Below are positions 54,856 through 64,000 of a stretch of DNA of 64,000 bases, piece by piece. Origin of the DNA: Escherichia phage BF17; the sequence record MW822008.1; one strand, 5' to 3'. Each line of letters opens with the position of its first letter. The stretch's first letter is position 1. The position numbers were made by a program, and so were the translations under genes. The notes under the pieces are model-generated. The model was not told the DNA's origin and made no database searches. It was given only the letters and a program-made list of their open reading frames with translations.

Positions 54856-57800
54856 ATGTATATCGATGCTTATATGGAACGTAAACGTACTGGTGATATT
54901 TTGCACGTAGCAGAACGTAAAAACGGTAAACGTATTCTACGTCAGTTGGACCCAGTATATGAATATTATGTTGAATCTCCTACTGGTGAACACAAAACAA
55001 TTTATGGAACCAACGCAAAGCATTTGGAGTTTGAAACTCAATCACAGATGAATAAAAGCGTTGAGCAACATAAAAATGAAGGTCTACGTATTTTTGAAAG
55101 TGATTGCAACATTACCTTCAAAACGTTGGCTAGAGAATACATGGGTAAAGGTTCGCCGGATTTGAACGTGGCATTTTTCGATATCGAAACCGACTTCCAT
55201 AAGAAGTTTGGTTATGCTCCACCATCAGATCCATTCAACCGTGTAACTGCAATTTCTCTATATCAATCATGGACTGGTAAGGATTATGTACTGACTTTGC
55301 CACCAACTGATATGGAAATGTACGAAGCACAAGATATTGTTCGTCAGTTAAACGAAGAAACTAACGACCCTAACAGTACTGTCATCCTTTATACGGATGA
55401 GAAAGAAATGTTTATGGAGTTCTTTAGTCTAATCGATGACTCTGATGTAATTTCAGGTTGGAACAGTGAATTCTTTGATATTCCATATATGGTCAACCGT
55501 ACCAAGAAAATCTTCAACGAAGCAACTACTGCTCGTTGGTGCTTGTGGAATAAAAAACCAAATGCTCGTGAAGCTGATAACTTTGGTAAAACTGTAGTAA
55601 CGTATGATCTTATTGGTCGCGTACACTTAGACTATCTTGCTCTTTATAAGAAACATGCTGGTCAAGTTGAACAGTCGTACAAACTAGATTATATTGCTGA
55701 AAAAGTAACTAAAGAAAACAAAGTATCCTATGAAGGTTCATTGGATAAACTATACCGTGAAGATTATATTACATTCTTGCGTTATTCTAAGCAGGATAGT
55801 ATTCTTCTAAAGAAAATTGATGCTAAATGTGACTTTATCAACCTGCATAACCGTCTTGCTCATAAAGAATGTGTACTAATTAGTACTACAATGGGTTCGG
55901 TTGCACTAATCGACACTGCTATCATCAACCTTGCTCACAGTCGCGGTGAAGTTGTTTTTAACAAAGCACCGAAAGATGATATTGAGTTAGATCCAGAGAT
56001 GGAGTACTATGGTGAAGAAGGTGATGAAGAAGATGAGAAAATCAGTGCAAAAGCTGCTGGTGCATGGGTTCAAGATCCAGTTCTTGGCCTTGTTAGCGAT
56101 TTGGGATGTACAGACTTTAACTCATTGTATCCAACTGTACTACGTACACTTGGCATGAGTACTGAATGTATTCTTGGACAACTTCGTCAAGACTACACTG
56201 ATGCATATCTTGCTGCTAAAGTACAAGAGCAAAAAGCTAAATCCAAATCTAAAGCGTTTGAACCTGATTGGACCGCTGCATGGCATGGTTTATTTGCTGC
56301 TGTAGAATTTACAATGGTTCATGAAAAATCTGACAAAACTTTGATTGTTGATTTAGAAGATGGTAGTTCGTTCAATGCAACTGGTAAAGAATTGTATGAT
56401 ATTATCTTTGCTGAAGACAGTACTATTGTACTAAGTGCTAACGGAACACTTTTTGATAAGTCTAAGTATGGTGTAATTCCAGATATTCTTACTCAATGGT
56501 ATTCTGAGCGTAAAGCACAACAAAAAATGGTAATCGACTACAAACACATGTACAGTGATGGGTGGGAATTCAATGGTTCTGAGAAGGTTGAACCTTTGCT
56601 ATCTAACTACACAAGTGGTACAATGTTCCGTACAAACTTACATGACAATGATCCTGTTTACCTATTACGTATTGCTATTGGTAAAGGTCAATGGGAAGAA
56701 GTTGCAAAACTCATTGTGGAAAATGGTTTAGTACTGAAAGATGGTCGTATTTTCTGTGCAACGGAAGATAAGAATTACTTCAAACAGCAAAGTGCATTCT
56801 GGAAACAGAACCAGCAAATTCGTAAGATTCTTCTAAACAGTCTATATGGTGCACTATTGAACAAAGGTTCACGTTTCTTTGATAAACGTTTAGGTCAGTC
56901 CGTTACCTTAACTGGTCGTTCTATGACTAAACATATGGCAAGCCGTATCAATGAAATCACTACTGGCGTTTATAATCACCAAGGTGGCTCTGTGATTTAC
57001 GGTGATACTGACTCCGTTTACTTCAGTGTAACTCATTACCTGAAAGAACAAGGTATTCCATATAATCTTTCGAAAGAAGAAATCGTTGACATGTATATCA
57101 AAATTGGTGATGAAGTTGGTGAATCATTCCCTTCATTCATGAACGAAATGTTCAATACTGGTATTGAGAAAGGTAAGATTGTTGGTGCAGACCTAGAGAT
57201 GGTCGGTTCCCGTGGTCTATTCCTGAAGAAAAAGCGTTATGCAATTCTCAAGTACTGGGAAGATGGTTTCCGTAAAGATGTTGATGGAAAGCCTGGTGAA
57301 ATTAAAGCGATGGGTCTTGAAATTAAACGTTCAGATACGCCAAAATACATCCAGAACTTCCTAGAAGAGACTCTAATTGCATTGCTGGTGGGTGAGTCTG
57401 AAGCTCAACTTAAACAGCGTGTACGTGACTTTAAAGAGGTATTTAAAGACATGCCTGTACACGAAAAGGGTTCACCGAAAACTGTTAAGAACTATACCAA
57501 CTTAGAAGCAGAATATGAAGTTTCTGGTAAATGTAAAGTTGGTCACGTATTAGCAGGTATTCAATGGAACCGTCTACGTGAAGTATATGATGACAAAACT
57601 GTACCTGAAGTAACTGACGGTACAAAAGTAATTGTATGTAACTTAAAAGATAACCCGATGGGTATCAAAGCAGTAGGTTACCCAATTGACTGTGTGGAAT
57701 ATCTACCTGAATGGTTCTTAGAACTACCATTTGATACAGAGAAAATGGAAGAAATAGTTCTAACTAAAAAATTAGAAAACATTTTTGGTATTCTGGATAT

Positions 57801-57861
57801 GGATATTGGTATTCATGAGAAAAGCACAGCAGCCGTTAATAACGGATTCTTCACCTGGTAA
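54856..57861 (+). CDS. 43: DNA polymerase, family B (gp43-like), 1001 aa
   Basis: Exonuclease motif FFDIETD; polymerase motif A DFNSLYPTV, motif B KILLNSLYGALLN, motif C VIYGDTDSVYF; RBS AAAGGAA. Confidence 0.9.
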   Translation: MYIDAYMERKRTGDILHVAERKNGKRILRQLDPVYEYYVESPTGEHKTIYGTNAKHLEFETQSQMNKSVEQHKNEGLRIFESDCNITFKTLAREYMGKGSPDLNVAFFDIETDFHKKFGYAPPSDPFNRVTAISLYQSWTGKDYVLTLPPTDMEMYEAQDIVRQLNEETNDPNSTVILYTDEKEMFMEFFSLIDDSDVISGWNSEFFDIPYMVNRTKKIFNEATTARWCLWNKKPNAREADNFGKTVVTYDLIGRVHLDYLALYKKHAGQVEQSYKLDYIAEKVTKENKVSYEGSLDKLYREDYITFLRYSKQDSILLKKIDAKCDFINLHNRLAHKECVLISTTMGSVALIDTAIINLAHSRGEVVFNKAPKDDIELDPEMEYYGEEGDEEDEKISAKAAGAWVQDPVLGLVSDLGCTDFNSLYPTVLRTLGMSTECILGQLRQDYTDAYLAAKVQEQKAKSKSKAFEPDWTAAWHGLFAAVEFTMVHEKSDKTLIVDLEDGSSFNATGKELYDIIFAEDSTIVLSANGTLFDKSKYGVIPDILTQWYSERKAQQKMVIDYKHMYSDGWEFNGSEKVEPLLSNYTSGTMFRTNLHDNDPVYLLRIAIGKGQWEEVAKLIVENGLVLKDGRIFCATEDKNYFKQQSAFWKQNQQIRKILLNSLYGALLNKGSRFFDKRLGQSVTLTGRSMTKHMASRINEITTGVYNHQGGSVIYGDTDSVYFSVTHYLKEQGIPYNLSKEEIVDMYIKIGDEVGESFPSFMNEMFNTGIEKGKIVGADLEMVGSRGLFLKKKRYAILKYWEDGFRKDVDGKPGEIKAMGLEIKRSDTPKYIQNFLEETLIALLVGESEAQLKQRVRDFKEVFKDMPVHEKGSPKTVKNYTNLEAEYEVSGKCKVGHVLAGIQWNRLREVYDDKTVPEVTDGTKVIVCNLKDNPMGIKAVGYPIDCVEYLPEWFLELPFDTEKMEEIVLTKKLENIFGILDMDIGIHEKSTAAVNNGFFTW

Positions 57862-58353: not shown

Positions 58354-58420
58354 GGTGCTTGTAGTAATCTGAAGCATACAAAAACATTTTTGATTAACAA
58401 ATAAAACGGAGAATTATATA

Positions 58421-59152
58421 ATGGATCTACGCAACGTACTACGTGACCTAGTTAACACTACCAACGGCATCGACTTTTCTTGTATCGCAGTTAGCAGTGA
58501 AGACCGTGGTGATGGACAGCGTGTTTACATGGAAGCATACACCGATGACCGCACCCTAGTTATGCGTGCTCACACTAAAGAAGACGTACCAGAAGTTCAA
58601 GGTCGTTTTGGTCTTGGTAACCTAGGTCTTCTACAGGGTCTAATGTCTCTAAAAACTTATAGTACTGAAGGAACTACTATCACTTCTAACTTGAAAGATG
58701 GTGCAGTTAAGAGCCTAGCATTCAAAGCAGAAGATGCAAGTACTACTTTCATGGTTCAACCAGAAAAACTAATTCCAGCCCAGCCTCGTTTCCACGAACA
58801 ACCATATGACGTACAGGTTACACCTAGTGCAGCTAAAGTTCAGGAACTAAAAAGCTTCTCTGGTGTGTTTAAATCTTTCAGTTCTCTAGTAACTCCATAC
58901 ACTGAAGGTGATACTCTTTACTTCCACGTTGGTGAGAAGAACAAAAGTAACCACGTTGGTGCACTAGCATTCTCTAAAACTGAAGGTGAACTAGGTCTTG
59001 GTTTTGGTTATAACATTGATCGTGTTCTACAAGCTCTATCCCGCGTTTCTAACGCAGAATCTGTTACCCTTGGTATTACAAAAACTGGTATGCTAAACGT
59101 AACTCTAGACACTGGTATTGCGGTATACAAGATTTACGTAACTGGTTGCTAA
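58421..59152 (+). CDS. Putative sliding clamp, gp45-like (243 aa)
   Basis: N-terminus MDLRNVLRDLVNTTNGIDFSCIAV resembles the T4 gp45 N-terminus (MKLSKDTTALLKNFATINSGIML) from memory; size and replication-gene context fit; strongly biased codon usage. Confidence 0.5.
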   Translation: MDLRNVLRDLVNTTNGIDFSCIAVSSEDRGDGQRVYMEAYTDDRTLVMRAHTKEDVPEVQGRFGLGNLGLLQGLMSLKTYSTEGTTITSNLKDGAVKSLAFKAEDASTTFMVQPEKLIPAQPRFHEQPYDVQVTPSAAKVQELKSFSGVFKSFSSLVTPYTEGDTLYFHVGEKNKSNHVGALAFSKTEGELGLGFGYNIDRVLQALSRVSNAESVTLGITKTGMLNVTLDTGIAVYKIYVTGC

Positions 59153-59218
59153 TATAAATAATGGGGAACATGGAGTTCCCCAAATTTTTGATTTAAAAAT
59201 AAGTAAAGGAAGACAAAA

Positions 59219-59425
59219 ATGCCATTATATACATATCGTTGTGAAAAAGAAGAATGTAAACACAGTTTAGAAAAGATTGTAAAAATTGCCAATCGTGAAG
59301 AACCTCATGATTGTCCTCAATGTAATGGTGAAAAGACTATGAAGTTGGAAGTTTTTACCCCTGGTGATAAAGGTGCTAATCTTTATTTCCGTGGTAAATG
59401 GTTTGCAAACACTGGAGGTTACTGA
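59219..59425 (+). CDS. FmdB-like zinc-ribbon protein (68 aa)
   Basis: MPLYTYRCEKEEC...CPQC matches the MPxYxYxC...CxxC zinc-ribbon pattern. Confidence 0.5.
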   Translation: MPLYTYRCEKEECKHSLEKIVKIANREEPHDCPQCNGEKTMKLEVFTPGDKGANLYFRGKWFANTGGY

Positions 59426-59426
59426 T

Positions 59427-59729
59427 ATGAAAATTAAAATGATTAACGATTATGTACTGGTTCGTCAAATTGAAGCACAGAATAAAAGTACTGGTGGTAT
59501 TATCCTAGGAAACGTGGAACCACCATGTGTTGGTATGGTGATTTCAGTTGGTGAAGGTAAAGTACTACCTAATGGGCAAATTGCAGAACATAATATTTGT
59601 GTTGGTGATATGGTTGTATTCGGTCGTTCATCACTAAACACTCCTATCACTGAAGATCTTGGTGGTGGTGAAGACACATATTATGTGATGAAAATTGAAG
59701 AAATTTTTGGTAAGAAATCAAATGGCTAA
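59427..59729 (+). CDS. groES: Co-chaperonin GroES homolog (100 aa)
   Basis: MKIKMINDYVLVRQIEAQNKSTGGIILGN...VISVGEGKVLPNGQ...VGDMVVFG...YYVMKIEEI follows the GroES signature along its length; RBS GGAGG. Confidence 0.8.
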   Translation: MKIKMINDYVLVRQIEAQNKSTGGIILGNVEPPCVGMVISVGEGKVLPNGQIAEHNICVGDMVVFGRSSLNTPITEDLGGGEDTYYVMKIEEIFGKKSNG

Positions 59730-60447
59730 AAAAAGGTTTATTCCTTTCTGGATGGTCCCCGCTCATTGGGGACTTTCTGGTAAAGCGAAAGAGATTGCGA
59801 AAGCATACTACTATAACGATGATTATGAAGCTGATATGTTAGTTGCAGAACTTACATATCTAACACCATATGAAGTTGATGTAGCACAGTTGGATATCAA
59901 AAAGAAATACAATGTATTAGAAACTCTTGATTATCTAATAGCACAGGCAGATGTACAATTGAAGTATTCCAAGATTACCCGTGATGAGTATAATGTAAAA
60001 TTACTTGATGCTAAATTAAGTACTGGTGCAATTACTCAAAAAGAGTATGATATGGAAGTAATCGAACTAATGCCTGATGGTGATGACAAACGTCTTAAAG
60101 CTATCGAGTTTGCATATCGTTATGAAGAGATTACACAACAAGAGTATTCAAAGGAAATCTTTACTTTACGTAAAGAACCTTGGATTGATTTGGATGTAGT
60201 ACTTAATCCAGAAACAAATGAAGTTGAATTTGTTTTTGATTATAATGAATACTTTTGGAAAAAGTTAAAAGCGGAAGGTCATCCAGGTAATGACGAAGAA
60301 GAAATTATTGACAACTTCGTTAGAGACATGGGGCGTAAACTAGCTACGGATGATTTCAGTGATGATTATGACGTAAAGCTAGTGAATGCGAACGAAGGGT
60401 TAGAGAATCTACCTGGTTTACCTGAAGGGTTCCGTTCATACAAATAA
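59722..60447 (+). CDS. Hypothetical protein with three ITxxEY repeats (SHOCT-like); start uncertain (59695 or 59722)
   Basis: Repeats KITRDEYNVKLL, AITQKEYDMEVI, EITQQEYSKEIF; overlaps the GroES gene end by 8 nt. Confidence 0.4.
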   Translation: MAKKRFIPFWMVPAHWGLSGKAKEIAKAYYYNDDYEADMLVAELTYLTPYEVDVAQLDIKKKYNVLETLDYLIAQADVQLKYSKITRDEYNVKLLDAKLSTGAITQKEYDMEVIELMPDGDDKRLKAIEFAYRYEEITQQEYSKEIFTLRKEPWIDLDVVLNPETNEVEFVFDYNEYFWKKLKAEGHPGNDEEEIIDNFVRDMGRKLATDDFSDDYDVKLVNANEGLENLPGLPEGFRSYK

Positions 60448-60448
60448 A

Positions 60449-60480
60449 AAAAGGAGAGCAAAAGCTCTCCTTTTCTTTTA
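60449..60480. terminator. Bidirectional intrinsic terminator (near copy of the one at 14684-14715)
   Basis: aaaaaa-AGGAGAGC-aaaa-GCTCTCCT-tttctttt. Confidence 0.75.
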
Positions 60481-60491
60481 TCTTTAATTTA

Positions 60492-61181
60492 TTAAACCAT
60501 CGCTGGGATGAATTTGAATAGTTTGATACCGAAGTCACCAGCAGCATCAGCAGCTTGGGAACGTAGAACAACTTCAGTAACACCATCTTTAGCGAGTAGT
60601 GGAACTGCGGTTAGGTCATCAATTAGTAGACGGCCTTCTTCGATCTCAGTACTTGGAACGCCTTGGAAAGATTGAATATCTTTATCAAATACGTTAGCAC
60701 GTTCAACGAGGAAAGTAACTACTGAAGCACTAGCGATATCAACAGACCCAACACTTAGGATACCGTCAGCAGCGTTGGTAAAACCAGTAACTGCAAATGG
60801 CTCAACGTCGTTGCCAGCGATTTCGGAAGTAGCGATGATAACTGCACGTTGTTGAACAACATCAACGATACGTTTAACGTTAGTTTGTGCAGCGTAAGCA
60901 GCGTTATAATCAGCTTCTAGAGTTGCTGCTTCAAATGGAGTACCATCGATACGGATGATACCTTTTTCGTTTAGATATGCAACGATTTCATCAGCTACGT
61001 CAGTGTTTAGGAAACGTTGTAGACCAGCGAAAGAACCAACTGCACCAGTAACACGCACGTTAACATTACCAATTTTACTAATTGCGATAGATGCTAGGGC
61101 GTTTTTGCCACAGAAGTAACCTAGAATTTTATCAAAGGAATAACCATTGATACGTTCAAAAGAAGTATTAGTATTAGACAT
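60492..61181 (-). CDS. Abundant late protein, paralog A (229 aa); probable virion structural protein
   Basis: Shares QQRAVIIATSE and ERANVFDK with paralog B; RBS-like GGGGGA; codon usage biased. Confidence 0.5.
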   Translation of the reverse strand: MSNTNTSFERINGYSFDKILGYFCGKNALASIAISKIGNVNVRVTGAVGSFAGLQRFLNTDVADEIVAYLNEKGIIRIDGTPFEAATLEADYNAAYAAQTNVKRIVDVVQQRAVIIATSEIAGNDVEPFAVTGFTNAADGILSVGSVDIASASVVTFLVERANVFDKDIQSFQGVPSTEIEEGRLLIDDLTAVPLLAKDGVTEVVLRSQAADAAGDFGIKLFKFIPAMV

Positions 61182-61196
61182 ATTGTAGTCCCCCTA

Positions 61197-61796
61197 TTAT
61201 AGTTGTACTGGTAGAGCAGCACGAACTTTAATTGCAACAGCGTCAGCGGCAGCAGCATCACCAACACCATCAGTACCTAGAGCAACATAAGATTTGGTAC
61301 GGAAGAATTTAGCTTGTGCAATAGCTTTAGCTAGTTCAACAGTTGGATCAACTGGAACAGAGTAAGCAGCACCTGGGCGAACTTCTTGTTTGTCAAATAC
61401 GTCTTGACGTTCACAGATGAAGGTTAGAGCAACAGAACCAGCACCACCTGTAACATCAGCACCACTAGTACCAAACGCGATTACGTTACCACCAACGGTT
61501 TTAAAGTCAGCAGGGATAACAACAGCGGTGTCTAGAGCTAGTACGGAAGTAGTAACTAGTACTGCACGTTGTTGTAGTAGTTGGGTAATCATGAATTGGT
61601 TGTATTGAGCATTGCTGATTGCAGTTTGTAGTGCTTCATCTTGAATTTCGGAACCGTCAGAAGTAACAGCGGTAGTACCAACTTCAACATCTGCTGGTAG
61701 ATCAACAACGATGGTTACGAAACCATTGTTACCACCCCAGTATTCACGAGCAGTAGCAGACATACCATAGTTACGGTTAAAAGAATTAAGACTCAT
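61197..61796 (-). CDS. Abundant late protein, paralog B (199 aa); probable virion structural protein
   Basis: RBS AAGGAG; shares QQRAVLVTTS and ERQDVFDK with paralog A. Confidence 0.5.
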   Translation of the reverse strand: MSLNSFNRNYGMSATAREYWGGNNGFVTIVVDLPADVEVGTTAVTSDGSEIQDEALQTAISNAQYNQFMITQLLQQRAVLVTTSVLALDTAVVIPADFKTVGGNVIAFGTSGADVTGGAGSVALTFICERQDVFDKQEVRPGAAYSVPVDPTVELAKAIAQAKFFRTKSYVALGTDGVGDAAAADAVAIKVRAALPVQL

Positions 61797-61838
61797 AAAA
61801 ATCTCCTTGTCAAATTTTGTGCAGGAACACCCTGCTTA

Positions 61839-61853
61839 ATATTATTTATCAAA
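61839..61853 (-). promoter_or_regulatory. Late-promoter-like element, proximal copy (minus strand reads TTTGATAAATAATAT)
   Basis: 15-nt direct repeat atattatttatcaaa, copy 1; GATAAATAATAT resembles the late promoter blocks elsewhere. Confidence 0.4.
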
Positions 61854-61901
61854 AAATATAAACCACATTTAAATTTAAGGCAATATTCCCTGATCTCTAT
61901 G

Positions 61902-61918: not shown

Positions 61919-64000
<2,082 letters not shown>

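Follow-up and report, generated by a model that had tools for sequence, protein, structure and literature searches.

The gene at positions 59722–60447 (plus strand) of the 64,000-nt stretch of Escherichia phage BF17 DNA analysed here (the window) encodes a modular 241-aa protein of a jumbo-phage family, and the constant neighbour of this gene throughout the family is the gene for an RNase H/flap endonuclease, not the GroES gene with which it overlaps in the window. The initial annotation had read the product as a SHOCT-like protein with three evenly spaced ITxxEY repeats that is co-expressed with GroES; what was observed holds for the most part, but most of the interpretation does not. From its conserved gene neighbourhood and its anatomy we tentatively infer that the protein is a non-enzymatic adaptor in a phage replication/repair module, in which its C-terminal core domain would work with the RNase H/flap endonuclease (FEN).

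The open reading frame is real. It runs from an ATG at 59722 to a TAA at 60447 and specifies an acidic protein of 28.3 kDa (pI 4.56, net charge about -19) that matches PHROG 13349 over its full length (residues 1–241 against profile positions 1–241, E=7e-111). Homologues open with M-A/S-K-K, the conserved start being the ATG at 59722, and it lies well upstream of the repeats, which settles the earlier doubt as to whether the true start might be located 3' of them. Pfam and NCBIfam searches of the protein return no family above threshold. PHROG 13349 is already catalogued, as an uncharacterised family that carries the label 'virion structural protein', and in the literature on its relatives no description of function, fold or repeat anatomy was found. 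Counterparts of the protein are 121Q gp616, RaK2 gp105, phAPEC6 gp212c, PA5oct EST35_0324 and Atu_ph07 gp272, and proteins 100% identical to it are encoded by the Escherichia phages Turkey3, EC.P1, fEgEco12 and Ecwhy_1. Homologues are detected by tblastn in 87 phage records, and among the matches listed all are from jumbo phages of about 285–490 kb; they are carried by Asteriusvirus, RaK2/K64-1, CBB/GAP32, Eneladusvirus, Xanthomonas phages, PA5oct-like phages and Atu_ph07. Searching 1.84 billion representatives (50% identity) with a profile of the family yields 659 matches at E≤1e-3, 394 of them at E≤1e-10, and IMG/VR contains at least 497 loci of the family, the proteins of which are about 90 to 350 aa long. 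This distribution is best explained by a family specific to the Rak2/PA5oct/Atu_ph07 superclade of jumbo myoviruses.

Judging from the identity of region 58400–61900 to Escherichia phage Turkey3 (99.8%) and to 121Q (about 84%), the window is DNA of a Rak2-like, Asteriusvirus-type E. coli jumbo myovirus. Upstream of the gene, a DNA polymerase gene (54856–57861) is followed by two small ORFs and then by the gene of a 243-aa clamp-like protein (58421–59152, plus strand; phrog_12062). The clamp-like protein, which has no Pfam or NCBIfam match, is called a sliding clamp in the annotation of some relatives, and its phAPEC6 counterpart gp215c, a putative replication-module protein, is present in the virion preparation of that phage with 5 peptides and 26% coverage. 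Behind the clamp-like gene, a GGGGAA...TTCCCC hairpin (59162–59182) that is kept in 121Q, phAPEC6 and RaK2 with differing loops forms the upstream border of a three-gene unit. Immediately before this hairpin stands TATAAATA (59153–59160), which is also found at this place in 121Q and phAPEC6; as a T4-type late promoter it was rejected, its copies in the window being not above chance and the element not being conserved in RaK2. The first gene of the unit (59219–59425, plus strand; Zn_ribbon_8, 6.4e-11) encodes a zinc-ribbon protein of 68 aa with CxxC motifs that is FmdB-like and is labelled 'type I antifreeze protein' in 121Q records. The second (59427–59729, plus strand; Cpn10, E=1.1e-16) encodes the GroES-like co-chaperonin, and the third is the gene under study. 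As had been noted from the sequence, this gene overlaps the end of the GroES gene, sharing 8 nt (ATGGCTAA) with the GroES stop codon, and it is indeed followed by a strong terminator, an intrinsic-terminator-like hairpin (60449–60474) with a T-run, a predicted energy of -17 kcal/mol and z = -5.1. This hairpin lies within the 44-nt gap between convergent genes and scores as a terminator on both strands. On its other side two paralogous genes of virion proteins (60492–61181 and 61197–61796, both on the minus strand; PHROG 9326, RaK2 gp106w and gp107w) are located. Proteins of this pair are abundant in virions (coverage of 55% and 53% in RaK2 and of 70% in phAPEC6) and have been proposed as tail-tube candidates. 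Next comes, on the plus strand, the gene of a T4-type RNase H/5'-3' exonuclease, a flap endonuclease (62005–62994; 5_3_exonuc_N, 2.2e-16; rnh hereafter), and 2 nt past its stop codon starts a 161-aa ORF to which no function is assigned (62996–63481, plus strand; phrog_15898).

The arrangement of the family elsewhere was determined by calling ORFs in 82 loci and searching them with the neighbouring genes of the window. In every one of the 81 loci with downstream DNA, rnh lies downstream of the PHROG 13349 homologue on the same strand, the gap between the two genes being 0 or less in 28 of them and at most 150 nt in 48. Independent gene calls give the same picture, with an overlap of 1 nt between EST35_0324 and the RNase H gene EST35_0325 in PA5oct and of 4 nt between gp272 and gp271 in Atu_ph07. 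A homologue of the 161-aa ORF follows rnh in 69 of the 82 loci, and the homologue, rnh and this ORF thus constitute a conserved triad. Even stand-alone versions of the C-terminal core domain described below are followed by a gene with the exonuclease domain PF02739 in the contigs of three such proteins, in one place with a 225-aa gene in between. This gene (L086:4275–4952) separates the core-domain gene from the 5'-3' exonuclease gene in one of two contigs, L086 and L087, that share an identical 95-aa core-domain protein and the same flanking order and differ by the 225-aa gene, which may be a mobile insertion, e.g., a homing endonuclease. In T4 the gene order is rnh-dsbA-33-59-32 and no gene occupies the position of the PHROG 13349 gene. 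A counterpart of T4 DsbA or gp33 was considered and rejected, hhalign probabilities being at most 0.2% and both T4 genes lying downstream of rnh, not upstream.

The upstream neighbours of the homologues vary: QueE is found in 60 loci and DNA polymerase together with clamp in 14; other loci have thymidine kinase or cytidylyltransferase-like genes there. The QueE-like gene of these 60 of the 82 loci (L011–L046 and others; PA5oct, L084:2190–3062) is that of a radical-SAM protein, a 7-carboxy-7-deazaguanine synthase, and stands just before the homologue; some related loci have, farther upstream, QueD-like and GTP-cyclohydrolase-like genes. No QueE-like gene was found between the DNA polymerase gene and the PHROG 13349 gene of the window. 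A GroES gene precedes the homologue in 11 of the 82 loci only, which belong to the Rak2-like clade and to a more distant contig (L012), and the same 11 loci are the only ones in which GroES, the zinc-ribbon gene and the two PHROG 9326 virion genes co-occur. Co-expression with GroES, which the initial annotation had thought probable, is plausible here in view of the 8-nt overlap and of the conserved hairpins that bracket the unit, but it is a feature of a single clade, and GroES was rejected as a family-wide partner as the adjacency is not conserved. In the window, the terminator and the two minus-strand PHROG 9326 genes separate the PHROG 13349 gene from rnh; the two virion genes occupy this place only in the Rak2-like clade and look like a clade-specific insertion. 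In this clade, the gene would now close a zinc-ribbon–GroES–PHROG 13349 transcription unit. With virion genes now placed between it and rnh, and with the gene at the end of this unit, the link to GroES is read as a secondary arrangement.

The repeats that were noticed in the protein exist, although neither their spacing nor their number is as first described. The motif IT..EY starts at residues 85, 104 and 137. When the protein was shuffled 200,000 times, three copies never arose and two copies only once, and comparison of a profile of 50 homologues with itself gives diagonals scoring 20.9, 20.2 and 17.9, as against column-shuffled controls whose maxima averaged 7.9 (sd 2.1, largest 15.3), so that the repeats are recovered by profile self-alignment as well. 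With gaps of 19 and 33 residues the three motifs are unevenly spaced, and they belong to an array not of three but of five 19-residue units (residues 39–57, 58–76, 77–95, 96–114 and 129–147) with a linker helix at residues 115–128, which together form the helical repeat array at 59836–60162 (plus strand; residues 39–147). The unit has the consensus EIRLKYGKITEYEYEKAKL, in which I or L occupies position 9 in 86% of units, T, S, D or N position 10 in 87%, E or D position 13 in 78%, and Y or F position 14 in 62%. Within the family the spacing between units has modes at 19 and 33 residues, and the count of detectable units rises with protein length (r=0.75). No paralogue of the protein and no other ORF with the repeat unit was found in the 64-kb window.

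The likeness of these units to the SHOCT motif is non-random, yet it does not make the protein a member of that family. The SHOCT profile (PF09851) matches residues 95–111 with 8.9 bits (E=1.8), and the best score among relatives, distant members included, is 13.9 bits, against a gathering threshold of 27 bits; the HMM search that had been proposed as a check thus remains far below the cut-off. At E≤10, 7 of the 50 family members are nevertheless matched (best E 0.19) where about 0.02 would be expected, and GvpG (PF05120; gathering threshold 30.6 bits) gives sub-threshold matches in 22 of the 50, the best reaching 26.2 bits and covering the same motif stretch; in the BF17 protein itself no GvpG match is found. 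Match frequencies so far above chance argue for a likeness to SHOCT and GvpG that is real at the level of the sequence motif. What is shared with SHOCT is a two-helix hairpin in which hydrophobic-T/S-x-x-E-Y/F opens the second helix and K and L positions come next (overall, L..L....I-T-x-x-E-Y...K..L), and the glutamate and hydrophobic positions of this second helix are indeed those conserved in the units (E/D, I/L and Y/F at the frequencies given above). In contrast, the glycine that is strongly conserved in the loop between the SHOCT helices has no conserved equivalent: among 231 units, 14% have Gly at position 7, and in the BF17 protein only G102 fits. The SHOCT unit is moreover about 30 residues long, is free of indels and lies within 50 residues of the C-terminus in 89% of SHOCT proteins, and tandem SHOCT arrays are known, e.g., in Naegleria (PMC3581485), whereas the repeats described here are internal and tandem (residues 39–147 of 241) and spaced by 19 or 33 residues. 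Because of the sub-threshold scores, the missing defining glycine and the missing C-terminal position, membership in the SHOCT family is rejected. Similarly, in gas vesicle protein G the profile positions 32–61 of 67 carry the same L...L..G-E-I-T-x-x-E-Y motif, but only about 30 residues align and there is no gas-vesicle context at this locus.

An AlphaFold2 model built from the 50-sequence alignment offers a simpler account of the motif. The full-length model has a mean pLDDT of 83.9, with values above 90 across the repeat region, and contains helices at residues 20–31, 34–45, 49–62, 68–81, 87–100, 106–116, 121–133 and 139–149. In four of the five units the motif threonine (T48, T86, T105 and T138) is the residue before the start of a helix as assigned by DSSP. 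Since it directly precedes the helix start, ITxxEY is read in this model as a helix N-terminal capping box with a hydrophobic staple, I being at N', T at N-cap, E at N3 and Y at N4, which is the textbook form of the two; they are the N-terminal helix motifs reportedly described by Harper and Rose in 1993 and by Munoz et al. in 1995. The capping box and the staple are structural motifs general to helices and do not define a homologous family. On the basis of the model, helix capping can account for the likeness to both SHOCT and GvpG with no need of common ancestry.

The array is one of four parts into which the protein can be divided. Near the N-terminus, residues 8–20 (59743–59781, plus strand) carry the motif PFWxxPAHWGLSG, with P13, W16 and G20 invariant in the 50-sequence alignment; its core, PxxWGxxG, characterises the long-form relatives (233 of 261) as opposed to the short forms (2 of 39). 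C-terminal to the array lies an alpha/beta core domain (60163–60354, plus strand; residues ~148–211) that consists in the model of a beta-hairpin (155–162 and 167–174) and two helices (176–184 and 192–209) and reaches a pLDDT of 86.6 when modelled alone. It constitutes the constant part of the family, with the motifs EPW and (F)ELDWNEYF and with W154, N175, L182 and G186 invariant in the 50-sequence alignment, and it also exists on its own in proteins of 67–123 aa. The last part is an acidic tail (60355–60444, plus strand; residues 212–241, pLDDT below 50) that is predicted to be disordered and ends in GFRSYK. The pattern of this tip is G-[RKF]-x-x-[YVI]-x across the family, the form G-[RK]-x-E-[YVI]-x being common to long and short proteins, and Y240 is kept in at least 90% of the 50-sequence alignment. 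No resembling structure was found by Foldseek in the PDB for the full model (best E=0.28) or for the core domain alone (best E=1.2), and against BFVD only uncharacterised homologues were returned. Sequence searches of solved structures, with the single protein or with the 50-sequence profile, gave HPV E2 as the best and insignificant match (E=0.18). A TPR-like helical repeat protein was considered and rejected, with Foldseek TM-scores of about 0.2 and TPR hits at E above 1.

Taken together, these features suggest how the proposed adaptor might be built and work. The core domain would be the ancestral part of the protein, and its gene would ancestrally have been the immediate upstream partner of rnh, often translationally coupled to it. 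The domain would bind RNase H/FEN or a partner shared with it. The stack of antiparallel helices of about 14 residues, each opening with I-T-x-x-E-Y and varying in number among relatives, would act as a rigid spacer of variable length, and the N-terminal docking motif (PFWxxPxHWGLxG) and the conserved aromatic tip in which the disordered acidic tail ends would dock onto another replication or repair component. A non-catalytic positioning of the nuclease of this kind is known from the accessory factors of T4 RNase H and FEN (gp32 and the gp45 clamp; PCNA-FEN1), to which the protein has no sequence or fold similarity but which it would resemble in its mode of action. Going further, it is possible, with less confidence than for an adaptor role in general, that the core domain is an accessory subunit, overlooked until now, of the flap endonuclease/RNase H of these phages throughout the superclade, and that the array of the long forms serves as a molecular ruler by which the nuclease is tethered, via the two terminal docking motifs, to a further component of the replisome. 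Several observations count against an adaptor. As in the window a terminator and genes on the opposite strand precede rnh, any coupling of expression between the two genes is lost here, and the gene is nevertheless kept. The synteny could instead reflect a frozen order of core-module genes, gene order alone being no proof of a link, and no known interaction motif, fold or domain fusion in support of an adaptor was found in the PDB, Foldseek and fusion searches; when fusions of the core domain to other domains were sought as a clue to its function, only the stand-alone proteins of 67–123 aa were returned. The detection of RaK2 gp105 in virions also speaks against it.

This detection is an argument for the most serious alternative, a low-copy protein of the virion or of its assembly (an internal head, scaffold-like or decoration protein) that is made together with GroES from a morphogenesis island, a reading that we consider rather unlikely. 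In purified RaK2 virions gp105 was identified by 5 peptides covering 21.7% of the protein (PMC3622015 Table S3), an identification from which the 'virion structural protein' label of PHROG 13349 appears to stem. The operon-like association with GroES, the adjoining PHROG 9326 virion-protein genes and the acidic, helical and elongated character that the protein shares with scaffold proteins fit such a role as well. However, the label goes back to detection in one proteome out of five. The virion list of phAPEC6 contains gp210, gp211 and gp215c but lacks gp212c, that of CBB contains CBB_270 and CBB_271 but lacks CBB_269, and gp272 is absent from that of Atu_ph07 (Table S5); in PA5oct, an ESI-MS/MS note accompanies the adjacent RNase H but not EST35_0324. 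The protein is therefore undetected in four proteomes, and these proteomes do include SSB, a RecA-like protein, the clamp-like gp215c and RNase H. With replication proteins recovered in this way, presence in a virion preparation is unspecific and is weak evidence of a structural role. Moreover, outside the Rak2-like clade the neighbours of the gene are those of DNA metabolism, with neither GroES nor virion genes nearby.

An acidic decoy or host-takeover protein that is carried in the replication module, e.g., a mimic of DNA or an inhibitor directed at a nuclease or defence system of the host, is in our view very unlikely. The net charge and pI of the protein, the spreading of its acidic residues over a rigid helical array, and a variable number of repeats, which is typical under diversifying pressure, are in line with such a function. 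Classic DNA mimics are far more acidic, though, and both the strong conservation of the core domain and of the two terminal motifs down to 22–30% identity and the fixed position of the gene over hundreds of lineages are unusual for counter-defence genes. Finally, it is hardly probable that, as first proposed, a SHOCT-family protein oligomerises here via its repeats as a co-chaperone partner of the phage GroES, since the motif likeness, the sub-threshold matches, the start codon overlapping the GroES stop codon and the TPR co-chaperone domains among the top Foldseek matches (at E above 1, with the low TM-scores noted above) are set against scores far below the SHOCT cut-off, the lack of the glycine and of the C-terminal position, a GroES adjacency in few loci, and the fact that the experiments of the authors who defined SHOCT did not support oligomerisation (PMC3581485).

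In all, for a SHOCT oligomerisation protein working with GroES the outcome is mostly deflationary: the protein combines a generic helix-capping repeat with a core domain to which no solved structure is detectably related, and 'SHOCT-like' motifs of the ITxxEY type can be explained by the physics of helix capping instead of by homology. What is new is that the linkage to RNase H is invariant and that the label 'virion structural protein' has a weak foundation; this label has spread from a single proteome to dozens of jumbo-phage genomes and is probably misleading. For Okazaki-fragment processing in these phages, a large group about which little is understood, the family represents a concrete candidate partner that can be tested, and its significance would grow if the partnership with RNase H is true.
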